DNA of 35,657 nt from the IMG/VR virus record IMGVR_UViG_2534681762_000014. One strand, 5' to 3'. This document shows positions 6,082 to 34,754 of this stretch, piece after piece. Below the pieces are notes generated by a model, which saw only the letters and a list, made by a program, of their open reading frames with translations, did not search any database and was not told the origin of the DNA. This DNA is from a virus (Duplodnaviria; Heunggongvirae; Uroviricota; Caudoviricetes). Within the stretch, counting starts at the first letter, position 1, and each line of letters opens with the position of its first letter. The position numbers and the translations under genes are program-made.

Positions 6082-7077
6082 ATGACTACTAAGCCAATGA
6101 GTCGACTATATGAAAAAATCAGCAAGGCGGGGTTTAGCCGTTCATTTATACGCAAAGTCTTACCTTCATGGTGGGACGACAGCCTAGCTGATACACCTTC
6201 AGGTAAGCAGTACGCTAGCCTTCATTTGGCTCGTGTTTTTAGTTTGTCTCCAGAAAGTCTCAAGGATGGTTCTGAATCTGCGTCTTTCAACCTTGGTGGA
6301 AATCATCGCTTTAAACATCGTGTAAATCTTGGTGAGGAAGACCTGAATGTTGCTACTGCCGTTGCATATTCTGCGGCGAGGATTGTAGCAGAGAATTTCA
6401 GTATCCCGTTTAATCCAAACGCAGAACTTAATTGGCAGGCAGTGAGGGATAAACTGCTCAGCGATAAAAAGTGGGTGGATTTGGCTTCTCTGATTGGTTT
6501 TTGCCATTCGTTAGGCATTCCTGTTGTCTACATTAAGAACTTTCCAACGGGTGCGGCAAAAATGGCTGGCCTTGCATTAAGTGTATCTGGTAGGCCAGTA
6601 ATTGTTTTAACCCAAGCTAAAACCCATGGATTTATGCTATTTGATTTGGCTCATGAGCTTGGTCATATTGCACTAGGCCATCTCAATGATCTCAATGGGG
6701 GGGTCCATGTTGATCGCAAAATTGAAGCGCAGTCTACTAACAATCTTGAGGTGGCAGCTAACAAATATGCCTTTGGTTTGATTGGTGGAAAAGAGACTTT
6801 GAGAATAGCACCTACAAGGGGCTATCTCACAGGTGAAAAATTGGCTAGAGCTGCGCTAGTATATGGTACACAGCATTGCATAGAGCCAACTCATGTAGCT
6901 TTGAACTATGGTCACAATTTAGGGCACTGGGGAGTGGCTGTTAACGCTGTTAAAAGTATTTGCGTGGGACAACCGACAGACCAATCTTTAGCTAGGCAGC
7001 TCATGATGGATGCCATCGATCACGAAAATATTAATGACGACGACTTAGAACTTTTAACGACGCTATGTGGGGTTTAA
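6082..7077 (+). CDS. ImmA/IrrE-family zinc metallopeptidase-domain protein, 331 aa, hotspot cargo gene 1
   Basis: HExxH motif in the typical ImmA/IrrE context (FMLFDLAHELGHIALGH at about residues 185-200); good RBS (GGAGG) upstream; AT-rich relative to the phage backbone. Confidence 0.7.
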   Translation: MTTKPMSRLYEKISKAGFSRSFIRKVLPSWWDDSLADTPSGKQYASLHLARVFSLSPESLKDGSESASFNLGGNHRFKHRVNLGEEDLNVATAVAYSAARIVAENFSIPFNPNAELNWQAVRDKLLSDKKWVDLASLIGFCHSLGIPVVYIKNFPTGAAKMAGLALSVSGRPVIVLTQAKTHGFMLFDLAHELGHIALGHLNDLNGGVHVDRKIEAQSTNNLEVAANKYAFGLIGGKETLRIAPTRGYLTGEKLARAALVYGTQHCIEPTHVALNYGHNLGHWGVAVNAVKSICVGQPTDQSLARQLMMDAIDHENINDDDLELLTTLCGV

Positions 7078-7080
7078 GTA

Positions 7081-7603
7081 GTGATCGTTCTTTCAGACAA
7101 TGATGTCATTTTGAAACTAGCGCAGTGTAATTTACTCCGTTACCTTCCTGAGATTTTGGAAGAGGATCCGCGAGGCATCTATGTTAGTCCGACGGCTCGT
7201 TTTCAATTATTACCGCGCAATACTGATAAAGCCATTAAGAAGTGCGGTAGTGTGGCTATTTACGAAAATGTGGAAAGATTTCTAGGAAGTGTGCAAGTTA
7301 TTGATGAAATCAGAAACGATGATTTGCTGATTAAACTTGGTGAGATACCACACATAGATGTCGGCGAACAACAGCTTTTAGCTGCATGCGTTGAGCAACC
7401 AGGAGCTTTGTTCATGACAGGTGACCGTCGATGTTTGCAGGCTGTGATGGACAATCAGACTATTGTCGCTACGGTTCATGCGCGTCTAATTGACTCAGTA
7501 ATAACCTATGAGAGTGCTCTTTTGCTTTCTGTTCGCGTTTTAGGATTTGAGACTCTATATCAACAACTACAAACGAACCCGAATCCAGATGCAATGCTGA
7601 GGA
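7081..7603 (+). pseudogene. PIN-like putative nuclease, N-terminal fragment (residues 1-174); gene interrupted by IS10
   Basis: GTG start 3 bp after the peptidase stop; N-terminal MIVLSDNDVIL resembles the first PIN strand with its acidic residue; later TGD motif; the frame runs into IS10 at 7604. Confidence 0.55.
7595..7603. repeat. IS10 target-site duplication, left copy (TGCTGAGGA)
   Basis: Identical 9-mer directly flanks both IS10 ends; fits the IS10 GCTNAGC preference. Confidence 0.85.
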
Positions 7604-8932
7604 CTGATGAATCCCCTAATGATTTTTATCAAAATCATTAAGTTAAGGTAGATACACATCTTGTCATATGATCAAATGGTTTCGCCAAAAATCAATAATC
7701 AGACAACAAGATGTGCGAACTCGATATTTTACACGACTCTCTTTACCAATTCTGCCCCGAATTACACTTAAAACGACTCAACAGCTTAACGTTGGCTTGC
7801 CACGCATTACTTGACTGTAAAACTCTCACTCTTACCGAACTTGGCCGTAACCTGCCAACCAAAGCGAGAACAAAACATAACATCAAACGAATCGACCGAT
7901 TGTTAGGTAATCGTCACCTCCACAAAGAGCGACTCGCTGTATACCGTTGGCATGCTAGCTTTATCTGTTCGGGCAATACGATGCCCATTGTACTTGTTGA
8001 CTGGTCTGATATTCGTGAGCAAAAACGACTTATGGTATTGCGAGCTTCAGTCGCACTACACGGTCGTTCTGTTACTCTTTATGAGAAAGCGTTCCCGCTT
8101 TCAGAGCAATGTTCAAAGAAAGCTCATGACCAATTTCTAGCCGACCTTGCGAGCATTCTACCGAGTAACACCACACCGCTCATTGTCAGTGATGCTGGCT
8201 TTAAAGTGCCATGGTATAAATCCGTTGAGAAGCTGGGTTGGTACTGGTTAAGTCGAGTAAGAGGAAAAGTACAATATGCAGACCTAGGAGCGGAAAACTG
8301 GAAACCTATCAGCAACTTACATGATATGTCATCTAGTCACTCAAAGACTTTAGGCTATAAGAGGCTGACTAAAAGCAATCCAATCTCATGCCAAATTCTA
8401 TTGTATAAATCTCGCTCTAAAGGCCGAAAAAATCAGCGCTCGACACGGACTCATTGTCACCACCCGTCACCTAAAATCTACTCAGCGTCGGCAAAGGAGC
8501 CATGGGTTCTAGCAACTAACTTACCTGTTGAAATTCGAACACCCAAACAACTTGTTAATATCTATTCGAAGCGAATGCAGATTGAAGAAACCTTCCGAGA
8601 CTTGAAAAGTCCTGCCTACGGACTAGGCCTACGCCATAGCCGAACGAGCAGCTCAGAGCGTTTTGATATCATGCTGCTAATCGCCCTGATGCTTCAACTA
8701 ACATGTTGGCTTGCGGGCGTTCATGCTCAGAAACAAGGTTGGGACAAGCACTTCCAGGCTAACACAGTCAGAAATCGAAACGTACTCTCAACAGTTCGCT
8801 TAGGCATGGAAGTTTTGCGGCATTCTGGCTACACAATAACAAGGGAAGACTTACTCGTGGCTGCAACCCTACTAGCTCAAAATTTATTCACACATGGTTA
8901 CGCTTTGGGGAAATTATGAGGGGATCTCTCAG
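7604..8932 (+). mobile_element. IS10 (IS4 family), complete 1329-bp copy
   Basis: Outside end CTGATGAATCCCCTAATGATTTT at 7604 and inside end ...GGGGATCTCTCAG at 8932; length exactly 1329 bp; encodes the 402-aa IS10 transposase. Confidence 0.9.
7711..8919 (+). CDS. tnp: IS10 transposase, 402 aa
   Basis: Translation recognised as Tn10/IS10 transposase (MCELDILHDSLYQF...HGYALGKL). Confidence 0.9.
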   Translation: MCELDILHDSLYQFCPELHLKRLNSLTLACHALLDCKTLTLTELGRNLPTKARTKHNIKRIDRLLGNRHLHKERLAVYRWHASFICSGNTMPIVLVDWSDIREQKRLMVLRASVALHGRSVTLYEKAFPLSEQCSKKAHDQFLADLASILPSNTTPLIVSDAGFKVPWYKSVEKLGWYWLSRVRGKVQYADLGAENWKPISNLHDMSSSHSKTLGYKRLTKSNPISCQILLYKSRSKGRKNQRSTRTHCHHPSPKIYSASAKEPWVLATNLPVEIRTPKQLVNIYSKRMQIEETFRDLKSPAYGLGLRHSRTSSSERFDIMLLIALMLQLTCWLAGVHAQKQGWDKHFQANTVRNRNVLSTVRLGMEVLRHSGYTITREDLLVAATLLAQNLFTHGYALGKL

Positions 8933-8941
8933 TGCTGAGGA
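8933..8941. repeat. IS10 target-site duplication, right copy (TGCTGAGGA)
   Basis: Exact match to 7595-7603. Confidence 0.85.
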
Positions 8942-9060
8942 TGGCTATGCGTTCTCGCAGCTCAGAAGATGTTTGTGGCTGCTTCTTTTCTTATACGCGC
9001 CCTGTATACGATTATCTGGCCTTTAAACAACATTTACCGGATCGTGCTTGGTTGCTTTAA
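8942..9060 (+). pseudogene. PIN-like gene, displaced C-terminal fragment (38 codons plus stop)
   Basis: When one duplication copy and IS10 are removed, the 7081 frame continues open for 39 codons to TAA at 9058-9060. Confidence 0.5.
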
Positions 9061-9193: not shown

Positions 9194-9212
9194 GGCGAGG
9201 CGGGGAAAGCAC
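9194..9212. other. cos: cos site: P2-type 19-nt cohesive-end sequence GGCGAGGCGGGGAAAGCAC
   Basis: Matches the P2 cohesive end as I recall it; located between the hotspot and the portal gene as in P2. Confidence 0.6.
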
Positions 9213-9354
9213 TGCGCGCTGGCGGTGGTGCTGATTTTATTTTTTCAGCGTCTGAGCGCGTCGTGATGGCGTTTAGATTGTGCGTCGGGGCGTTGGTGTA
9301 TCTAAGGGGTGTTTTGTGCGGTGGTGAGCGTGTGAGGGCGTGATGACGGGATGT

Positions 9355-9376
9355 AAAAAAGCCGCCCGCAGGCGGC
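9355..9376 (-). terminator. Rho-independent terminator downstream of Q (minus strand)
   Basis: GC-rich hairpin GCCGCC-CGCA-GGCGGC preceded on the plus strand by A6 (U-run on minus), immediately after the Q stop. Confidence 0.6.
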
Positions 9377-9381
9377 GATGT

Positions 9382-9875
9382 TCAGTCGTTGTCAGTGTCC
9401 AGTGAGTAGTTTTTAAAGCGGATGACCTCCTGACCGAGCCAGCCGTTTATCTCTCGGATCCTGTCCTGTAACGGGATAAGCTCATTGCGGACAAAGACCT
9501 TTGCCACTTTCTCAATATCACCCAGCGACCCGACGTTCTCCGGCTTGCCGCCCATCAACTGAAAGGGGATGCGGTGTGCGTCCAGCAGGTCAGCGGCGCT
9601 GGCTTTTTTGATATTAAAAAAATCGTCCTTCGTTGCCACTTCACTGAGTGGGATAATTTTAATGCCGTCAGCTTTCCCCTGCGGGGCATAGAGAAACAGG
9701 TTTTTAAAGTTGTTGCGGCCTTTCGACTTCACCATGTTTTCGCGAAGCATTTCGATATCGTTGCGATCCTGCACGGCATCGGTGACGTACATGATATATC
9801 CGGCATGTGCGCCATTTTCGTAATACTTGCGGCGGAACAGCGTGGCCGACTCATTCAGCCAGGCAGAGTTAAGGG
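9382..9875 (-). pseudogene. Q: Portal protein Q, C-terminal fragment (gene split by IS66-family insertion)
   Basis: Translation continues the portal sequence (...NSAWLNESATLFRRKYY...) from the fragment at 12575-13123; the apparent Met at 9886-9888 lies inside the IS. Confidence 0.8.
9868..9875. repeat. IS66-family target-site duplication, left copy (GTTAAGGG)
   Basis: Same 8-mer at 12575-12582, flanking the element. Confidence 0.75.
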
Positions 9876-9928
9876 GTAACCGGCTCATTTAAACCGTCTG
9901 GTCTGTTTCCTCCGGCTCTACAAAAATA

Positions 9929-10606
9929 ATGTCCATCATTTTTAATGGACACTATCGTATGAAACACCGGACCTGGATCACTGAAGCTTTACGTCTTCAC
10001 TTTGAAGAACATTTACCCCGGGTTGTGGCCGGGCGTCGCCTGGGTGTACCAAAATCAACAGTTTGTAGTATGTTCGTGCGCTTTCGGAGAGCTGGCCTTT
10101 CGTGGCCTTTGCCCGCAGGCATGTCGGAGCAGGAACTTGATGCCTGCCTTTACGGACAATTTTCCACGGTACCAGTCGTACGTCCTGAAAGCACCGTTAT
10201 ATCCGAAGCCCCCGTGGTAAAAAAACGTCCCCGGCGGCCCAACTTCCCTTATGAGTTTAAAATCGCCTTAGTGGAGCAGTCACTGCAGCCCGGAGCCTGT
10301 GTGGCGCAGATCGCCCGGGAAAACGGAATCAACGATAACCTGCTCTTCAACTGGCGCCATCAATACCGGAAAGGTGGCCTGCTGCCTTCCGGAAAAAATA
10401 TGCCGGCACTGCTTCCCGTGACGTTAACGCCGGAGCCGGATAATAAAATCCCGGCCCCCGCACAGGAACCAGAGCAGATAAATACACCGTCCGACAGTCT
10501 GTGTTGTGAGCTGGTTCTGCCGGCCGGAACTCTCAGGCTTAAAGGTAAACTGACGCCGGCGTTATTACAGACACTTATCCGCGAAATAAAAGGGAGCAGC
10601 CACTGA
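9929..10606 (+). CDS. tnpA: IS66-family accessory protein TnpA (orf1), with an N-terminal HTH-like extension
   Basis: Contains the IS66 orf1 signature (PNFPYEFKIALVEQSLQPGACVAQIARENGINDNLLFNWR); true start may be the downstream Met at 9959. Confidence 0.7.
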   Translation: MSIIFNGHYRMKHRTWITEALRLHFEEHLPRVVAGRRLGVPKSTVCSMFVRFRRAGLSWPLPAGMSEQELDACLYGQFSTVPVVRPESTVISEAPVVKKRPRRPNFPYEFKIALVEQSLQPGACVAQIARENGINDNLLFNWRHQYRKGGLLPSGKNMPALLPVTLTPEPDNKIPAPAQEPEQINTPSDSLCCELVLPAGTLRLKGKLTPALLQTLIREIKGSSH

Positions 10607-10953
10607 TGATATCTCTCCCTGCAGGTTCGCGTATCTGGCTGGTTGCAGGTATCACCGATATGCGAAATGGCTTTAACGGCCTGGCATCAAAAGTTCAGAA
10701 CGTCCTGAAGGATGACCCGTTCTCCGGACACCTGTTCATCTTCCGCGGACGCCGGGGTGACCAGATAAAAGTGTTGTGGGCTGACAGTGACGGACTGTGC
10801 CTCTTCACCAAACGCCTGGAGCGGGGCCGCTTCGTCTGGCCAGTCACCCGTGACGGCAAGGTGCACCTTACTCCGGCTCAGTTATCCATGCTTCTTGAAG
10901 GTATCAACTGGAAGCACCCGAAACGAACGGAACGCGCTGGAATCCGCATATAA
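10606..10953 (+). CDS. tnpB: IS66-family TnpB (orf2), 115 aa
   Basis: Characteristic size and sequence; overlapping stop/start with orf1. Confidence 0.8.
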   Translation: MISLPAGSRIWLVAGITDMRNGFNGLASKVQNVLKDDPFSGHLFIFRGRRGDQIKVLWADSDGLCLFTKRLERGRFVWPVTRDGKVHLTPAQLSMLLEGINWKHPKRTERAGIRI

Positions 10954-10972
10954 CCCGTTGTAAAGTGAGGAT

Positions 10973-12544
10973 ATGGACACCTCACTTGCTCATGAGAACG
11001 CCCGCCTGCGGGCACTGTTGCAGACGCAACAGGACACCATACGCCAGATGGCTGAATACAACCGCCTGCTCTCACAGCGGGTGGCGGCTTATGCTTCCGA
11101 AATCAACCGGCTGAAGGCGCTGGTTGCGAAACTGCAACGTATGCAGTTCGGTAAAAGCTCAGAAAAACTTCGTGCAAAAACCGAACGGCAGATACAGGAA
11201 GCACAGGAGCGAATCAGCGCACTTCAGGAAGAAATGGCGGAAACGCTGGGTGAGCAATATGACCCGGTACTGCCATCCGCCCTGCGCCAGTCTTCAGCCC
11301 GTAAACCGTTACCGGCCTCACTTCCCCGTGAAACCCGGGTTATCCGGCCGGAAGAGGAATGCTGTCCTGCCTGTGGTGGTGAACTCAGTTCTCTGGGATG
11401 TGATGTGTCAGAGCAACTGGAGCTTATCAGCAGCGCCTTTAAGGTTATCGAAACACAACGTCCGAAACTGGCCTGTTGTCGGTGCGACCATATCGTGCAG
11501 GCACCAGTACCTTCAAAACCCATTGCACGCAGTTATGCCGGAGCGGGGCTCCTGGCCCATGTCGTCACCGGAAAATATGCAGACCATCTGCCGTTATACC
11601 GCCAGTCAGAGATATACCGCCGTCAGGGTGTGGAGCTGAGCCGTGCCACACTGGGGCGCTGGACAGGTGCCGTTGCTGAACTACTGGAGCCGCTGTATGA
11701 CGTCCTGCGCCAGTATGTGCTGATGCCCGGTAAAGTCCATGCTGATGATATCCCCGTCCCGGTCCAGGAGCCGGGCAGCGGTAAAACCCGGACAGCCCGG
11801 CTGTGGGTCTACGTCCGTGATGACCGTAACGCCGGTTCACAGATGCCCCCGGCGGTCTGGTTCGCGTACAGTCCGGACCGGAAAGGTATCCATCCACAAA
11901 ATCACCTGGCCGGTTACAGCGGTGTGCTTCAGGCCGATGCTTACGGTGGTTACCGGGCGTTATACGAATCCGGCAGAATAACGGAAGCCGCGTGTATGGC
12001 TCATGCCCGGAGAAAAATCCACGATGTGCATGCAAGAGCGCCCACCTACATCACCACGGAAGCCCTGCAGCGTATCGGTGAACTGTATGCCATCGAGGCA
12101 GAGGTCCGGTGCTGTTCAGCAGAACAGCGTCTGGCGGCAAGAAAAGCCAGAGCCGCGCCACTGATGCAGTCACTGTATGACTGGATACAGCAACAGATGA
12201 AAACACTGTCGCGTCACTCAGATACGGCAAAAGCGTTCGCATACCTGCTGAAACAGTGGGATGCACTGAACGTGTACTGCAGTAATGGCTGGGTGGAAAT
12301 CGACAACAACATCGCAGAGAACGCCTTACGGGGAGTGGCCGTAGGCCGGAAAAACTGGATGTTCGCGGGTTCCGACAGCGGTGGTGAACATGCGGCGGTG
12401 TTGTACTCGCTGATCGGCACATGCCGTCTGAACAATGTGGAGCCAGAAAAGTGGCTGCGTTACGTCATTGAACATATCCAGGACTGGCCGGCAAACCGGG
12501 TACGCGATCTGTTGCCCTGGAAAGTTGATCTGAGCTCTCAGTAA
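10973..12544 (+). CDS. tnpC: IS66-family transposase TnpC, 523 aa
   Basis: Characteristic size; N-terminal coiled coil, CxxC-type zinc-finger region, DDE core. Confidence 0.85.
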
Positions 12545-12574
12545 ATATCAATACGGTTCTGACGAGTCGCTTAC

Positions 12575-12582
12575 GTTAAGGG
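12575..12582. repeat. IS66-family target-site duplication, right copy (GTTAAGGG)
   Basis: Exact match to 9868-9875. Confidence 0.75.
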
Positions 12583-13123
12583 CGCTGAGATATTCCGGCA
12601 GGCCGTACAGCTCCTGATTAATATCCGGCTCCAGCAGGTGAAACACGGAGCCGGGTGCGAAGGCTGTCGGCTCGTTGAAGGACGGCACCCACCAGTAAAC
12701 ATCCTCCTCCACACCACGGCGGGTATATTTTGCCGGTGAGGTTTCCAGTCTGATGACCTTACCGGTGGTGCTGTAACGCTTTTCCAGAAACGCATTACCG
12801 AACACCAGAAAATCCAGCACAAAGCGGCTGAAATCCTGCTGGGAAAGCCACGGGTGCGGAATAAACGTTGAAGCCAGAATATTACGTTTGACGTAAATCG
12901 GTGAGCTGTGATGCACGGCAGCACGCAGGCTTTTTGCCAGACCGGTAAAGCTGACCGGTGGCTCATACCATCTGCCGTTACTGATGCACTCGACGTAATC
13001 CAGAATGTCACGGCGGTCGAGTACCGGCACCGGCTCACCAAAGGTGAATGCCTCCATTTTTGGGGCACTGGCAGTCATTTTTTTTGCCGCAGGTTGCGGT
13101 GTTTTCCCTTTTTTCTTGCTCAT
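12575..13123 (-). pseudogene. Q: Portal protein Q, N-terminal fragment
   Basis: Starts MSKKKGKTPQPAAKKMTA...; the last 9 codons of the listed ORF (to 12548) are IS-derived. Confidence 0.8.
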
Positions 13124-14895
13124 CAGTAAAACTCCAGAATGGTGGATGTCAGCGGGGTGCTGATACCGGCGGTGAGTGGCTCATTTAACAGGGCGTGCAT
13201 GGTCGCCCAGGCGAGGTCGGCGTGGCTGGCTTCCTCGCTGCGGCTGGCCTCATAGGTGGCGCTGCGTCCGCTGCTGGTCATGGTCTTGCGGATAGCCATA
13301 AACGAGCTGGTGATGTCGGTGGCGCTGACGTCATATTCCAGACAGCCACGACGGATAACGTCTTTTGCCTTGAGCACCATTGCGGTTTTCATTTCCGGTG
13401 TGTAGCGGATATCGCGCGCGGCGGGATAGAACGAGCGCACGAGCTGGAACACGCCGACACCGAGGCCGGTGGCATCAATACCGATGTATTCGACGTTGTA
13501 TTTTTCGGTGAGTTTGCGGATGGATTCAGCCTGGGTGGCAAAGTCCATGCCTTTCCACTGGTGACGCTCAAGTATTCTGAATTTGCCACCGGCCACCACC
13601 GGCGGTGCCAGCACCACGCATCCGGCACTGTCGCCACGGTGTGACGGGTCGTAACCAATCCAGACCGGGCGGGAGCCGAACGGATTCGCGGCAAACGGCG
13701 CATAGTCTTCCCATTCTTCCAGCGTGTCGACCATGCAGCGTTGCAGCTCCTCGAACGGGAATACCGACGCCTTGTCGTCAACAAATTCACACATGAACAG
13801 GTTTTTAAAATCGTCGGCGCTGTTTTCGCGTTTAAGCTGCTCAATGTCGAACAGCGTGCAGCCACCTTTCAGGGCGTCCTCAATGGTGACAATCTGCCGC
13901 CACTGGCCGTCCGCACAGAGAAGCCCACCGGCAAGGGCGTTATGACTGACGTCGATTTCCACGCGTTCGGCGGCGCTGGCGCGTCCCCGGTTGAACAGTT
14001 CACCCGACCAGAACGGATAGGCGTCGTGCGCCAGCGTGGACGGGGTGGAGAAATAGGTCGAGCGCAGGTGACTCTGTGAGGCCATACCTGATGCCACCTT
14101 ACGCAGTACCTGAAAATTCGGGATCCAGAAAATCTCGTCGACGTACAGGTCACCGTTATGGCTCTGTGCGGTGTTGGAGTTGGTGCCGAGAAAAATCAGT
14201 TTTGCGCCGTTATTGCCCAGGACAATCGGGTCACCGGTCAGGTCAACGTCAACCAGCCGGGCAAAGGCGATGATGTATTCGCGGAACACATACGCCTGCG
14301 TTTTACTGGCCGACAGAAAAATCTGGTTATGACCGGTTTTCAGGGCGCGCAGCAGCGCCTCGCGGGAAAAATAAAACGTTGCGCCAATCTGGCGGGATTT
14401 CAGGATATCGCGGATGCGGTGCTCAAGCCCGGCGCGATACCAGTGCAACTGATATTCGAAAGACTGCTCAAAGAAAATCTGCTCCAGCTTTTCGATGGCC
14501 TCGTCACTGAAAAAATTCTTTTTCGGTTTGCGACGCCCGCCTTTGTTGCGGTTAGCGACGTTCGGATTAAGGTCTGCCTCGTTGCCGGTCTGACTGTAAC
14601 GGTTGACCCGTGCCAGTCGTTCAATCTGGCGTCCGAGCAGGTCAATTTCCTTGAAGTCACCGCCGGTTTTCTGCGGTTTGATGATGAGCTGGGTCAGTCG
14701 CGCTTCCAGACTCATTTCGACACGGCTGATGGGGGCAACGTTGTCCCAGCCGTCGCGCTGTTTCCAGCTCTGCACCGTCGGGCGTTTCATCTGCAACATG
14801 GCGGCAATCTGCGGCACGGAAAACCCCTGCCAGTACAGCAGCGCCGCCTGACGACGCGGGTCGTGTAAAAGAGTGGTGTCTGTGGTGATGGTCAT
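13123..14895 (-). CDS. P: Terminase large (ATPase) subunit
   Basis: About 590-aa protein matching P2 gpP size and position; stop overlaps the Q start (ATGA). Confidence 0.85.
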   Translation of the reverse strand: MTITTDTTLLHDPRRQAALLYWQGFSVPQIAAMLQMKRPTVQSWKQRDGWDNVAPISRVEMSLEARLTQLIIKPQKTGGDFKEIDLLGRQIERLARVNRYSQTGNEADLNPNVANRNKGGRRKPKKNFFSDEAIEKLEQIFFEQSFEYQLHWYRAGLEHRIRDILKSRQIGATFYFSREALLRALKTGHNQIFLSASKTQAYVFREYIIAFARLVDVDLTGDPIVLGNNGAKLIFLGTNSNTAQSHNGDLYVDEIFWIPNFQVLRKVASGMASQSHLRSTYFSTPSTLAHDAYPFWSGELFNRGRASAAERVEIDVSHNALAGGLLCADGQWRQIVTIEDALKGGCTLFDIEQLKRENSADDFKNLFMCEFVDDKASVFPFEELQRCMVDTLEEWEDYAPFAANPFGSRPVWIGYDPSHRGDSAGCVVLAPPVVAGGKFRILERHQWKGMDFATQAESIRKLTEKYNVEYIGIDATGLGVGVFQLVRSFYPAARDIRYTPEMKTAMVLKAKDVIRRGCLEYDVSATDITSSFMAIRKTMTSSGRSATYEASRSEEASHADLAWATMHALLNEPLTAGISTPLTSTILEFY

Positions 14896-23838: not shown

Positions 23839-25034
23839 CAGTGAAATACTACGCCATTCTGACTAATCAGGGCGCAGCACGGCTGGCTAACGCGACGATG
23901 CTCGGCAGTAAGCTGAATCTGACGCAAATGGCCGTTGGTGATGCGAATGGTGTCTTGCCGACACCAGACCCGGCACAGACAAAACTGATTAACCAGAAAC
24001 GCATCGCGCCGCTGAATCTTCTGAGTGTTGACCCGAACAACCAGAGCCAGATTATTGCGGAGCAAATCATCCCTGAGAACGAGGGCGGATTCTGGATCCG
24101 TGAGATTGGGCTTTATGATGATGAAGGCGTACTCATTGCGGTGGCGAACTGCCCGGAAACGTACAAACCGCAGTTGCAGGAAGGCAGTGGTCGTACCCAG
24201 ACTATCCGCATGATTCTGGTTGTCACGAATACCGAAGCTATCACGCTGAAAATCGACCCGTCGGTGGTACTGGCGACCCGTAAATACGTGGATGATGAAG
24301 TCCTGGAATTAAGGCTGTATGTGGATGACCAGATGAGAAACCACATTGCCGCACAGGATCCTCATACCCAGTATGCGCAGAAACATAATCCGACATTTAC
24401 CGGAGAACCAAAAGCGCCGACGCCTGCCGCAGGAAATAACACCACGCGGATTGCGACCACTGAGTTTGTTCAGGCCGCTATTACCGCTCTGATTAACGGT
24501 GCGCCTGACACGCTGGACACACTGAAAGAAATTGCCGCGGCCATTAACAATGACCCGAAATTCAGCACCACCATTAACAATGCGCTGTCAGGTAAGCAGC
24601 CACTGGATGAGACGCTGACTCATTTGAGTGGAAAGGATGTTGCTGGTCTTCTCGCATACCTTCAATTGAAATCGGCCGCACAACGGGATGTGGGCACTGG
24701 CGCAAATCAAATCCCGGATATGAACTCTTTTCATATCTCAACGTCACAAACAGGATGGTGCAAATTTCCAAATGGACTAATTTTGCAGTGGGGAGTGACG
24801 ACAACGATATCTGCGTCTGGTAGTGTTTCTTATCCAATACCATTCCCTGGTGGTTGTTTATTTGTGGGTAAAAATACTTATAGTCCAGTGGCTGCAACAA
24901 CCGCTGTGTTTGAAATTGTTAATCCGTCTATGACTGGTTTCACTGCTGCAAACATCGGCAGTCTTACGCAAGGGTCTTCCACTTTTAATGCACCAACACC
25001 GTCAGGAATGGCGTTTTTTGCAATTGGATATTAA
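23835..25034 (+). CDS. H: Tail fibre protein H (constant N-terminal part plus currently joined variable tip), 399 aa
   Basis: N-terminus (MTVKYYAILTNQGAARLANA) is the conserved P2 fibre start; the tip begins inside the inverted repeat at 24661. Confidence 0.8.
   Translation: MTVKYYAILTNQGAARLANATMLGSKLNLTQMAVGDANGVLPTPDPAQTKLINQKRIAPLNLLSVDPNNQSQIIAEQIIPENEGGFWIREIGLYDDEGVLIAVANCPETYKPQLQEGSGRTQTIRMILVVTNTEAITLKIDPSVVLATRKYVDDEVLELRLYVDDQMRNHIAAQDPHTQYAQKHNPTFTGEPKAPTPAAGNNTTRIATTEFVQAAITALINGAPDTLDTLKEIAAAINNDPKFSTTINNALSGKQPLDETLTHLSGKDVAGLLAYLQLKSAAQRDVGTGANQIPDMNSFHISTSQTGWCKFPNGLILQWGVTTTISASGSVSYPIPFPGGCLFVGKNTYSPVAATTAVFEIVNPSMTGFTAANIGSLTQGSSTFNAPTPSGMAFFAIGY
24661..24723. repeat. 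Left inverted repeat of the invertible tail-fibre segment, containing the candidate invertase crossover site
   Basis: About 63 bp with roughly 85 percent identity to the reverse complement of 27133-27195; begins with the 10-bp palindrome TTCAATTGAA exactly where homology starts. Confidence 0.65.
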
Positions 25035-25036
25035 TC

Positions 25037-25468
25037 ATGAGCTATGTATACAGCGCTAAAAAAAACGCTTTCTATCCCGTCGAGTTGCAGGACAACTATG
25101 AGGCATCAGGAACGTGGCCTGCCGATGGGATAGAAGTTGGAGTGGATGTATTTAATATTTTTTCTCAGCTACCACCAGAAGGTAAACAGAGAATTCCTGA
25201 TAGCAATGGAATGCCTGCCTGGGGCGATATTCCGCCGCCCACTCATGATGAATTAGTTGCTGCGGCAACTGCCGAGAAACAGCATCGCATTGATGCTGCG
25301 AATGCATTCATGAGCAGCAGGCAATGGCCGGGAAAGGCCGCGATGGGGCGTCTGAGCGCTGCGGACAAAGTTCAGTATAATTTATGGCTGGATTATCTTG
25401 ATGCGCTGGAGGCAGTGGATACTGCCATCGCGCCGGATATCAACTGGCCTGCTCGCCCGGCTGAGTAG
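25037..25468 (+). CDS. G: Tail fibre assembly chaperone (gpG/Tfa), expressed orientation
   Basis: 143 aa; conserved C-terminal block (SSRQWPGKAA...QYNLWLDYLDALE) shared with the inverted copy at 26402-26830. Confidence 0.8.
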   Translation: MSYVYSAKKNAFYPVELQDNYEASGTWPADGIEVGVDVFNIFSQLPPEGKQRIPDSNGMPAWGDIPPPTHDELVAAATAEKQHRIDAANAFMSSRQWPGKAAMGRLSAADKVQYNLWLDYLDALEAVDTAIAPDINWPARPAE

Positions 25469-25544
25469 GTCACTCGATATCGGGGCTATAGAGATATCAA
25501 TCGCCTCCATTGCAGGCGTTACCAGATTTTAGCCAAATAAATAT

Positions 25545-25568
25545 CCTCCGGCATAGCCGGAGGTTTTT
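25545..25568 (+). terminator. Rho-independent terminator after tfa
   Basis: 8-bp stem CCTCCGGC/GCCGGAGG, 3-nt loop, followed by TTTTT. Confidence 0.6.
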
Positions 25569-25574
25569 CAAATG

Positions 25575-26282
25575 CGCCTATAAGGCTCTCTTACCAGCCG
25601 CGCCCTAACAGGCGCACACGATCTGACATTTGCATCCAACTTCGTTACTTACGGCCCGTAAACGGGCTGCCCGGATAGGGAATCGATAACTGCTCTCCCA
25701 TTTTATCCTCTTCAAGCTGGTGCTTTATGTAATCCTGTATCTTCGCCGTGTTCTTACCCACCGTATCGACGTAATACCCTCTGCACCAGAACTCCCTGTT
25801 CCTGTATTTGAATTTCAAATCACCAAACTGCTCGTAAAGCATCAGACTGCTTTTCCCTTTCAGATATCCCATAAAGCCGGGTACGCTCATTTTGGGCGGG
25901 ATCTCCACAAGCATATGGATATGATCTGCACAGCATTCAGCTTCCAGAATCCGTACACTTTTCCACTCACACAGCTTTCTCAAAATACAGCCTATTGCTC
26001 TACGCTTCTCTCTGTAGAACACCTGTCTTCGGTATTTTGGCGCAAATACTATGTGATATTTACAGTTCCATCGGGTGTGCGCTAAGCTCTTTTCGTTCCC
26101 CATTGGGACCCCCTTTTGATTTCTTGTTTGACACTTGCAGTTGCCAGACCGCAAGGTGTTTTAACAAATCAAAAGGGGTTTTAATAACTGGCTCAAAGCT
26201 GAAAGCTTTCCGGAACCCCCAGCCTAGCTGGGGGTTTTCTGTGCACAAAAAAGCCCCTGCATTTCTGCAGGGGCCTGATATC
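25575..26282 (-). mobile_element. IS200 (IS200/IS605 family), about 0.7 kb; boundaries approximate within some tens of bp
   Basis: Encodes IS200 TnpA; left-end region has two strong hairpins (26216-26234 and 26253-26274), the outer one preceded by A6 on the plus strand (a terminator on the tnpA strand), as described for IS200; no terminal inverted repeats expected. Confidence 0.75.
25645..26106 (-). CDS. tnpA: IS200 transposase TnpA (Y1 HUH type), about 153 aa
   Basis: Translation recognised as IS200 TnpA (MGNEKSLAHTRWNCKYHIVFAPKYRR...HIHMLVEIP...), with HUH motif HIH. Confidence 0.85.
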   Translation of the reverse strand, partial: PMGNEKSLAHTRWNCKYHIVFAPKYRRQVFYREKRRAIGCILRKLCEWKSVRILEAECCADHIHMLVEIPPKMSVPGFMGYLKGKSSLMLYEQFGDLKFKYRNREFWCRGYYVDTVGKNTAKIQDYIKHQLEEDKMGEQLSIPYPGSPFTGRK

Positions 26283-26358
26283 TGGTGCTGGCTGAATGGA
26301 ATCGAACCATCGTCTTTCCGCGTACAATGCGAAAGCTCTACCACTGAGCTAAACCAGC
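26283..26358 (-). tRNA. tRNA-like sequence, possible tRNA-Thr (anticodon UGU) variant or pseudogene, with encoded CCA
   Basis: Reverse complement reads GCTGGTT-TA-GCTCAGTGGTAGAGC-T-TTCGC-ATTGTAC-GCGGA-AAGAC-GATGG-TTCGATT-CCATT-C-AGCCAGC-A-CCA: canonical D-arm and T-loop, 7-bp acceptor stem, anticodon loop centred on TGT, but one extra nucleotide between the T-stem and acceptor stem. Confidence 0.45.
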
Positions 26359-26401
26359 AATGGTGCAGAATAATACCCGGATTCTGATAAAATGCAATAG
26401 C

Positions 26402-26830
26402 TTATTGTGGCTGAACAGGCCATTCGATATCAGGTGCAGTTGAAATGCCGAGAGCTTCCAGCGCATCGAGATAATCCAGCCACAGGTTATACTGCGCCAG
26501 CTCATCCCCCTTCAGTCTGCCAATAGCCGCTTTGCCCGGCCACTGCCTGCTGCTCATGTAATCGTTGGCCTGGCTAATCAACGCCTGTTTTTTAACGTCA
26601 GCTGCTGCAATGAGTTCTTTGCGTGTAGGTGGGGGCATATCCACCCATACTGGCATTCCATCGTCTGCTCCCAGAGCTTTTCCAGGTGGTGGTGACCCTG
26701 TAAATGTACTGACTATATCATCGCTGATATCAATCATATCAGACATGTCCCATCCCGCCGATTCATAAGACGACAGCCAGGATTTCGGGAAAAAGTTCAC
26801 AGTCGTTGCAGACCATTTATATCCGTTCAT
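26402..26830 (-). CDS. Alternative tail fibre assembly chaperone (Tfa'), inverted orientation
   Basis: 142 aa; same conserved C-terminal block as the tfa at 25037-25468, divergent N-terminus; convergent with it. Confidence 0.75.
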   Translation of the reverse strand: MNGYKWSATTVNFFPKSWLSSYESAGWDMSDMIDISDDIVSTFTGSPPPGKALGADDGMPVWVDMPPPTRKELIAAADVKKQALISQANDYMSSRQWPGKAAIGRLKGDELAQYNLWLDYLDALEALGISTAPDIEWPVQPQ

Positions 26831-26834
26831 TTAT

Positions 26835-27195
26835 TTAGCTCCCGAACGCCAGCCAGAATATTGTCATTGTACTGGCTGTATTCGTTGTGTATATGCTGAA
26901 TCGCGACGTGCTATCTACATTGACGTTGAAACTGACAGGTCCGGTTCCATAGAGGCCGGGGTTAACCAGAGCAGGAATCACACAGGAGCAACGGTTAGGA
27001 AACGGAACAGGAAAAAACACAGCGTTACCTGATGAACCACCGGTGATGTTTGGTGCATTTCCCCCATCAATACCATGCCATTTGGAAACCGGTAATAAAA
27101 TGCCATGGTTGTCGAACCGCCCGTAAAACTGCTCATATCCGGTATCTGATTCGCACCAGTACCCACGTCTCGTTGCGCGGCCGATTTCAATTGAA
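26835..27195 (-). pseudogene. Alternative tail-fibre variable tip (Hv'), frameshifted
   Basis: Minus strand encodes LKSAAQRDVGTGANQIPDMSSF..., homologous to the H tip, then changes frame (two ORFs, 26978-27235 and 26835-27020); segment length is out of phase with the H frame. Confidence 0.6.
27133..27195. repeat. Right inverted repeat of the invertible tail-fibre segment
   Basis: Reverse complement matches 24661-24723; the TTCAATTGAA palindrome is at 27186-27195. Confidence 0.65.
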
Positions 27196-27262
27196 CGTTT
27201 AAGAAAATGCAGAGATAACGGCTAACTGGCATCATCTCCGGTTTTTATTCAGGGGATCCATC

Positions 27263-27856
27263 ATGCTTATTGGCTATGTCCGCGTATCAACAAATGACCA
27301 GAATACGGAATTGCAGCGTAACGCGCTGGAGTGTGCAGGATGTGAGCTGATTTTTGAGGACAAAATCAGCGGCACGAAGTCCGACTGGCCGGGACTGAAA
27401 AAACTGCTCAGGACATTATCGGAGGGGGATACACTGGTAGTCTGGAAGCTGGACCGGCTGGGGCGTAGTATGCGGCATCTGGTCATTCTGGTTGAGGAGC
27501 TGCGCGAACGCGGCATTAATTTTCGCAGCCTGACGGATGCCATTGATACCAGCACGCCAATGGGGCGTTTTTTCTTTCATGTGATGGGTGCCCTGGCTGA
27601 AATGGAACGAGAACTCATTGTCGAGCGGACTCGCACCGGACTGGAAGCGGCCAGAGCTAAAGGTCGTATTGGTGGCAGACGTCCGAAGCTCACCGCGAGT
27701 GAGTGGGAACAGGCAGGACGGTTGCTGGCTGCGGGTGAATCACGTCAACGCGTGGTGCTGATTTTTGATATTGGCCTGTCCACGCTCTATAAAAAATTCC
27801 CCTCATCAGCGGCAAAGAATAAATTGTGTCATCCCTTAGCCAACCGGGACAAATAG
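27263..27856 (+). CDS. Serine recombinase, Din-family DNA invertase (Pin/Gin/Cin/Hin-like), 197 aa
   Basis: N-terminal catalytic domain with the active-site Ser in MLIGYVRVSTNDQ, the SMRHL and GRFFFHVMGALAEMERE blocks, and a C-terminal HTH; sits immediately outside the right inverted repeat. Confidence 0.9.
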   Translation: MLIGYVRVSTNDQNTELQRNALECAGCELIFEDKISGTKSDWPGLKKLLRTLSEGDTLVVWKLDRLGRSMRHLVILVEELRERGINFRSLTDAIDTSTPMGRFFFHVMGALAEMERELIVERTRTGLEAARAKGRIGGRRPKLTASEWEQAGRLLAAGESRQRVVLIFDIGLSTLYKKFPSSAAKNKLCHPLANRDK

Positions 27857-34556: not shown

Positions 34557-34646
34557 GGTCGATGTGGACGCTATGTGGACGGTGGTTGATATAAATCCAT
34601 TTATATCATCAGGTTAGGTGCTTTTTTGTGACACCATCCCTGTCTT

Positions 34647-34673
34647 CCCCCACATGATGTGGGGGTTTTTTTT
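34647..34673 (+). terminator. Strong Rho-independent terminator (C5ACA-loop-TGTG5 followed by T8), probably host-derived
   Basis: 8-bp GC-rich stem with an 8-T run; lies between the prophage end and fieF. Confidence 0.7.
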
Positions 34674-34754
34674 ATCCTCAATTTGCCTGCTGCTTAATGC
34701 ATTGCAGATGATTTGCTTCCGTTATACTAGCGTCAGTTGATAGCGGGAGTATTT

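Follow-up and report, generated by a model that had tools for sequence, protein, structure and literature searches.

The locus described here raises the question of how the portal gene of a P2-like prophage came to lie in two pieces, and of what this means for the phage. The DNA analyzed, a stretch of 35,657 nucleotides referred to below as the window, corresponds to a P2-like (Peduovirus-type) prophage located between cpxP and fieF on an Escherichia coli chromosome (draft genome GCA_000355115.2, contig AQEJ01000024.1). The insertion sequence ISCro1 has split the portal gene Q of an otherwise complete prophage, and very probably a functional portal has been lost together with the formation of infectious particles.

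Gene Q lies on the minus strand at 9382-13123, and within it ISCro1 (IS66 family, 2,699 bp) was found at 9876-12574 in plus orientation, in agreement with an earlier note on this DNA which had reported an IS66-family element of roughly 2.7 kb in the portal gene. The element is abutted at both ends by a perfect 8-bp target-site duplication, GTTAAGGG, with the left copy at 9868-9875 and the right copy at 12575-12582, exactly where the earlier note had placed it; these are the only two occurrences of this sequence in the whole window. A duplication of 8 bp is the typical signature of IS66-family elements, and two positions set independently by the ends of the element would share exactly the same 8 bp by chance with a probability of about 1.5e-5. 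The termini of ISCro1 are imperfect inverted repeats (GTAACCGGCTC... and GTAAGCGACTC...) which begin with GTAA and match at 14/20 and 17/25 positions.

The duplication spans Q codons 181-183, which agrees with the interruption previously located between codons 180 and 183. The 5' fragment of Q (12575-13123, minus strand), identified from the list of open reading frames and its translation, comprises codons 1-183, which take in the right copy of the duplication, and tblastn aligned it with residues 1-183 of P2 gpQ at 98.9% identity. The 3' fragment (9382-9875, minus strand) comprises codons 181/182-344 and the stop codon and was aligned by tblastn with gpQ residues 182-344 at 100% identity. As open reading frames, both pieces run into the element: the N-terminal ORF (12548-13123, minus strand) encodes 191 aa, the last eight being IS-encoded, and the C-terminal ORF (9382-9888, minus strand) encodes 168 aa, the first five being IS-encoded, with its in-frame ATG inside the ISCro1 end at 9886-9888. 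Thus, in place of an uninterrupted Q able to encode a dodecamer-forming protein, the locus holds pieces of 191 and 168 aa that are 2.7 kb apart. No secondary mutations were found in either fragment. When ISCro1 and one copy of the repeat were deleted in silico, an ORF of 1,035 nt encoding the 344-aa portal anticipated by the earlier note was obtained, and this restoration of the reading frame upon removal of the element settles the split-gene reading.

The earlier note had also proposed aligning the reconstructed product with P2 gpQ, and in this alignment 342 of the 344 residues were identical. Isolated phages (pro483, R18C and STYP1) have portals with 100% identity to the restored protein over 343 aa, and the restored protein matched the Pfam family Phage_portal (PF04860) with 53.3 bits (cut-off 39.1) over residues 89-327, so that the break at residue 183 falls in the middle of the domain. 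Searched by sequence for a portal structure in which to place the break, the PDB offered nothing meaningful, even at E<=10; the position of the break was therefore judged from the extent of the Pfam domain and from the published model of the P2 virion. The gpQ protein is a dodecameric portal required for DNA packaging (PMC7552001), and its gpL-binding clip strand has been assigned to L240-Y243 (bioRxiv 10.64898/2026.09.14.750843), a segment present only in the C-terminal fragment.

As in P2, the terminase large subunit gene P precedes Q in a shared operon, with the terminator tQ and the cos site downstream; the locus differs from that of P2 in that Q is physically split at codons 181-183. Gene P (13123-14895, minus strand, 590 aa) is intact, with 99.7% identity to P2 gpP over residues 1-590 by tblastn. 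The P-Q operon terminator was located by a terminator scan at 9361-9376 (minus strand), the position that tQ has in the P2 record, and the 19-nt cohesive-end sequence of cos, GGCGAGGCGGGGAAAGCAC, was read directly and aligned to the P2 cos region at 9194-9212 (plus strand), where it is intact. No gene follows Q in the operon, so that the insertion has no polar effect on any other phage gene. A promoter scan of positions 9300-13200 revealed no sigma-70-like promoter; the C-terminal Q fragment is preceded by no promoter-like site and by only a poorly spaced ribosome-binding sequence.

The inserted element itself is complete. It carries three consecutive intact ORFs of standard lengths and domains, all on the plus strand and all with Pfam matches above the cut-offs: tnpA (9929-10606, 225 aa, HTH_Tnp_1 domain, PF01527, E=8.6e-15), with the length found in RefSeq-annotated copies; tnpB (10606-10953, 115 aa, IS66 Orf2-like, PF05717, E=4.7e-40), the start of which overlaps the tnpA stop (TGATG); and tnpC (10973-12544, 523 aa), encoding a DDE transposase (PF03050, E=3.8e-103) with the zf-IS66, LZ_Tnp_IS66 and DDE_Tnp_IS66_C domains. 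All 2,699 bp were 100% identical, over the full length, to many copies labeled 'IS66-like element ISCro1' in RefSeq, the labels on which the name rests. With its intact ORFs and its identity to other copies, the element in Q is apparently active. It shares with known ISCro1 the total length, the lengths of tnpA, tnpB and tnpC, the tnpA-tnpB overlap, the GTAA repeats and the 8-bp duplication; the sole difference is the insertion site, here a prophage portal gene. ISCro1 is widespread in E. coli. It was first noted as the most expanded insertion sequence of Citrobacter rodentium ICC168, a genome with over half of its IS copies in other mobile elements (PMC3072379).

The remainder of the prophage was found in good order. 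By tblastn, every other essential P2 gene was recovered as a full-length single HSP, which bears out the earlier statement that the remaining morphogenetic genes are intact. The integrase, cox, repressor, replication A and B, terminase, capsid, lysis and tail genes are all intact, as are cos, the late promoters (the P/O promoter region is identical to P2 at 171/173 positions) and the att cores. The latter form a 47-bp identical repeat, at 34630-34676 of the window and, on the source contig, 162-116 bp to the left of window position 1. The hallmark genes L, M, N, O, P, Q and T, as listed for the Peduoviridae (PMC13100340; bioRxiv 10.64898/2026.09.14.750843), are present in P2 order with 91-100% identity, Q being split. 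Differences from P2 were found in the immunity and integration module (C 43% and Int 52% identity), in the cargo genes and in an invertible tail-fibre module. Differing gene calls had suggested a frameshift in the silent tail-fibre cassette, a suggestion that was discarded because related loci in which the frame is open have identical DNA over this cassette. Given the intact essential genes, cos and late promoter region, Q is the sole visible lesion of the head and packaging functions.

The following sequence of events accounts for these data. A full-length ISCro1 transposed into Q codons 181-183, generating the 8-bp duplication. The N-terminal product, consisting of 183 portal residues and eight residues read from the element, lacks the part with the clip strand, and the Q pieces would not be expected to assemble into a functional dodecameric portal. 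Procapsids devoid of a packaging vertex would then neither package DNA from cos nor be joined to tails. The prophage would probably still be capable of immunity, excision, replication and lysis, would release no infectious P2 particles, and would be unable to serve P4-type satellites as a helper. As a rule, P2-type phages are not SOS-inducible. From the role of gpQ and the confinement of the clip strand to the C-terminal fragment we strongly infer the loss of infectious particle production, the outcome that the earlier note had claimed. Two features work against this account: both Q fragments are still open, and the ATG in the IS end leaves room for complementation between the fragments; furthermore, the duplication being perfect, a rare precise excision of the element would restore Q.

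The insertion is recent and restricted to one lineage. Its recency follows from the perfect duplication, the 100% identity of the element to other copies, the unmutated Q fragments and the small number of samples in which it occurs. Apart from GCA_000355115.2, it turned up only in contigs of a few sequencing runs. Both junction-specific chimeric proteins were recovered from independent assemblies, namely the NCBI contig and Logan contigs of SRR447115, SRR447116 and SRR8723261, the DNA of which is 99.9-100% identical to the window. Neither Q/ISCro1 junction was detected by megablast among 5,426 complete E. coli genomes, and a junction-spanning 40-mer was absent from the GTDB species-representative genomes. 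For the comparison with relatives lacking the insertion, which the earlier note had recommended, ten relatives that share this prophage's cargo cassette were available; Q is uninterrupted in all of them, and one, L014, contains the empty site as an exact 60-mer.

It appears unlikely that the insertion has little functional effect, with the portal supplied in trans by a second P2-type prophage, or Q restored by excision, and the prophage spreading at low frequency. P2-type Q is common, being found in 1,662 of the 5,426 complete genomes, with up to four matching places in some; the perfect duplication permits exact restoration of the gene; and the prophage, IS load included, spans about 34.8 kb from one att core to the other, close to the 33.6 kb of P2. 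However, no second portal gene was seen on the contig examined, an observation that applies to this contig only, and IS elements as a rule seldom excise precisely.

The earlier note had read the intact genes beside a broken Q as a sign of recent domestication. On that view, loss of the portal was selected as a step that abolishes phage spread but leaves the host with the functions for tails, lysis, immunity and defence, for example as a producer of tailocin-like particles. We consider it very unlikely. The tail, lysis and regulatory genes are indeed intact, and P2 tails are related to R-type tailocins (bioRxiv 10.64898/2026.09.14.750843). Nevertheless, a single hit is observed, and the other head and packaging genes, cos, the integrase and the replication genes are all in place without any sign of selection for the retained functions; a tailocin locus would instead show the head, packaging and replication modules lost, and tail and lysis genes kept, across a lineage. 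With replication and lysis genes intact, an induced cell would still die. That the insertion occurs in just one assembly and a handful of sequencing runs also speaks against domestication, as does the state of Q elsewhere: 1,616 of the 1,662 genomes with P2-type Q retain at least 80% of the gene in one piece. Of the partial Q matches in other genomes, neither of the two that were sampled was due to an IS: one was the remnant of a deletion, the other a divergent variant of 339 aa. Moreover, two other elements, not mentioned in the earlier note, were found in the same prophage. An IS10 at 7604-8932 breaks a cargo gene in the defence hotspot, which argues against selection for functions useful to the host, and an IS200-family element occupies about 25535-26250 in the invertible tail-fibre segment. 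Together they point to plain IS accumulation, and the prophage looks like a tolerant target in which IS elements collect.

An independent second case, which could be taken in favor of domestication, was found in NZ_CP062865.1, where ISCro1 splits Q of another P2-type prophage with an 8-bp duplication, CCACTTCA, and where removal of the element likewise gives a 344-aa ORF. The IS and the gene are the same; the site differs, lying near codon 260 (placed by eye from the flanks), the orientation is opposite, and the element has 13 nucleotide differences from the copy in Q here, so that the two events must be independent. That ISCro1 knock-outs of the portal are recurrent and favored by the host, as a first step toward a non-transmissible element that provides immunity, defence cargo and tails (an incipient tailocin), is nonetheless very improbable. 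About 14,000 ISCro1-matching places were counted across the 5,426 complete genomes, and a 1-kb Q is present in a third of them; two hits are thus within chance expectation. Some megablast hits overran the IS ends by a few bases, but this was rejected as evidence for a target preference of ISCro1, since a ranking of rows by coverage favors chance extensions; CCACTTCA is unrelated to GTTAAGGG.

An assembly artefact, in which a multi-copy repeat was misplaced inside Q of a draft genome, is extremely unlikely, because other read sets independently yielded both junctions, in Logan contigs running from the prophage into the IS ends, and because a misjoin would not produce the exact 8-bp duplication expected of IS66-family transposition.

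The split of Q by ISCro1 is a real but ordinary prophage inactivation, and nothing in it calls for a new line of biological enquiry; in IS-rich E. coli, Shigella and Citrobacter, prophage genes are commonly knocked out by IS insertions. In annotation, the locus should be described as a P2-like prophage whose portal gene is a pseudogene, rather than as an intact or active phage, a distinction that automated prophage-completeness tools could miss, since every other gene is present. It also offers a clean natural Q-null P2-type prophage that is open to complementation with Q in trans.

The portal gene Q of the P2-like prophage (minus strand, 9382-13123) was found as two minus-strand ORFs at 12548-13123 (191 aa) and 9382-9888 (168 aa), with three plus-strand ORFs of 225, 115 and 523 aa between them. 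The inserted block of 2,699 bp (9876-12574) was flanked by copies of GTTAAGGG at 9868-9875 and 12575-12582, the only occurrences of this sequence in the window. Deletion of the block together with one repeat copy gave a 1,035-nt ORF encoding 344 aa, in which the 8-bp duplication spanned codons 181-183. The restored protein showed 100% identity over 343 aa to the portals of the isolated phages pro483, R18C, vB_EcoM-12474 II-V and STYP1. Pfam Phage_portal matched it with 53.3 bits (threshold 39.1 bits) at residues 89-327, so the break falls mid-way through the conserved domain. The earlier note had described an IS66-family insertion in Q, and its coordinates, repeats, IS block and restored 344-aa ORF were all correct; the reconstructed portal, which it had proposed to align to P2 gpQ, differs from that protein by two residues, T15K and G20A. 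The split locus is a P2 gpQ locus.

The inserted block is ISCro1, of the IS66 family. It starts with GTAACCGGCTC and finishes with the reverse complement of GTAAGCGACTC, its inverted repeats being imperfect (14/20 and 17/25 positions identical), and the whole block was 100% identical to many RefSeq copies of "IS66-like element ISCro1". Its products were assigned by Pfam as an HTH_Tnp_1 protein, an IS66 Orf2-like TnpB and a DDE_Tnp_IS66 transposase, the last of which has zinc-finger, leucine-zipper and C-terminal domains. ETEC genomes carry several identical copies each; in Citrobacter rodentium ICC168, ISCro1 has expanded more than any other IS (PMC3072379), and in E. coli ST131 its insertion is known to change gene expression (PMC8764528).

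The two chimeric fragment proteins, possible only with this exact insertion, were used as a diagnostic. They were present in NCBI GCA_000355115.2, contig AQEJ01000024.1 (the window's own contig), and in Logan assemblies of SRR447115, SRR447116 and SRR8723261. Misassembly was ruled out, since the same junctions occur in these Logan contigs, which are 99.9-100% identical to the window. Two short contigs run from inside the right end of the IS10-like element of the cargo cassette to inside the left end of ISCro1, so those samples share both insertions. Neither the 5,426 complete E. coli genomes nor the GTDB species representatives contained a match to the Q/ISCro1 junction. P2-type Q occurred in 1,662 complete genomes, 1,616 of which have 80% or more of it as a single stretch. 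Ten related prophages with the same cargo cassette (98-99% identical DNA; nine of the ten adjoin cpxP) had an unbroken Q, 344 or 339 aa long, and one of them, L014, contained the exact 60-mer empty site. The rarity of the junction, the uninterrupted Q of the relatives and this empty site show that the insertion is a derived and recent one, limited to a single lineage.

The prophage of the window is P2-like. When every P2 protein was run against the window by tblastn, one full-length match was obtained for each of P, O, N, M, L, X, Y, K, lysA/B/C, R, S, V, W, J, I, FI, FII, E, T, U, D, ogr, B and A; int, C, cox and H were divergent, and Q was the sole split gene. The 19-nt cos (9194-9212) was intact, with conserved flanks in agreement with P2, the P/O divergent late-promoter region was identical to that of P2 at 171/173 positions, and a terminator scan located a terminator after Q (9361-9376). 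No gene follows Q in the P-Q operon, so ISCro1 is not polar on any other phage gene. Physically, Q is split and everything else is intact. On the right the prophage is flanked by fieF, a neighbour found in essentially all E. coli, and on the left, in the source contig, by cpxP; copies of a 47-bp att core lie at 34630-34676 and 162-116 bp left of window position 1. The att core ends in the cpxP-side terminator hairpin, and integration took place between cpxP and fieF. The immunity and integration module (1-1753) is unlike that of P2 (Int 52%, C 43% and Cox 43% identity). A related prophage at the same integration site, L008 (GCA_050597755.1, contig DBIUHT010000018.1), apparently lacks the whole stretch of genes from terminase through tail sheath, its portal gene being followed by the tail tube gene.

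In P2, gpQ builds the dodecameric portal of the unique capsid vertex, which DNA packaging requires (PMC7552001); the virion model comprises residues 27-340 with wing, stem and clip, and the clip strand L240-Y243 binds the head-completion protein gpL (bioRxiv 10.64898/2026.09.14.750843). The corresponding residues here, LFLY, are present in the C-terminal fragment only. The N-terminal fragment stops at residue 183, followed by 8 foreign residues. The in-frame ATG of the C-terminal fragment comes from the IS end, but the one Shine-Dalgarno-like sequence before it, GGAGGAAA, stops about 17 nt short of this codon. A search of 9300-13200 gave no sigma-70-like promoter, and a minus-strand terminator-like hairpin within ISCro1 separates the C-terminal fragment from the late promoter. 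We infer that portal function is lost. The prophage would keep immunity, excision, replication and lysis, would release no infectious particles and would be unable to help P4-type satellites. Disruption of an essential prophage gene by an IS is a well-known type of event, of which the insertion in Q is a new instance; its main value lies in the correct annotation of a complete-looking prophage that is probably non-transmissible.

Recent domestication, which the earlier note had suggested, found no support: one head gene was hit and the insertion is very narrowly distributed. A second IS also speaks against it, having broken an accessory gene in the A-Q hotspot, a site of anti-phage systems in P2-like phages (PMC9122126). 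With its replication and lysis genes intact, the prophage would still kill the cell on induction, and the Q knock-out would appear mainly to harm the phage, with no obvious host benefit. An independent ISCro1 insertion was found in Q of another P2-type prophage, L007 (NZ_CP062865.1, 1559345-1562043; host E. coli O39:H21, pig), which differs from that of the window in site, opposite orientation, duplication (CCACTTCA) and 13 nt of ISCro1; its removal likewise restores a 344-aa portal. With about 14,000 places matching ISCro1 in the 5,426 genomes and Q in one third of them, two Q insertions are within chance expectation.

The cargo cassette of the A-Q hotspot consists of two genes (6082-7077 and 7081-9060, the second interrupted) and is widespread (417 blocks in the index of the contig collection). 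The product of the first is 331 aa long and has an IrrE/ImmA-type M78 peptidase domain and weak PADLOC matches to capP/RmrA-type models. The second is split by the 1,329-bp IS10-like element (7604-8932; duplication TGCTGAGGA at 7595-7603 and 8933-8941), which encodes a 402-aa DDE_Tnp_1 transposase and has an Rfam RNA-OUT match at 7649-7718. Its removal gives a 213-aa protein, intact in the ten related prophages, for which no family match was found. Several relatives have one more cargo gene, for a 378-aa ParA/AAA_31-like protein, and the 339-aa portal variant.

An invertible tail-fibre module (24649-27856) replaces the H/G and fun(Z) region of P2. It contains 83-nt inverted repeats (24649-24731 and 27125-27207), an alternative H C-terminus with a second assembly gene (26402-27207, minus strand) and a serine invertase gene (27263-27856). 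An IS200-family element (about 25535-26250, minus strand; Y1_Tnp transposase, Rfam STnc490 match at 26113-26236) sits between the two tail-fibre assembly genes; in contrast to ISCro1 and IS10, it also occurs in other genomes with this module (e.g., CP148268.1) and is therefore older. Beside it, within the invertible segment, lies a tRNA-Thr (anticodon TGT; 26283-26358, minus strand), a stretch that matched no P2-like phage record by megablast. The reading frame of the silent tail-fibre cassette is open, and the cassette matches those of related loci exactly.
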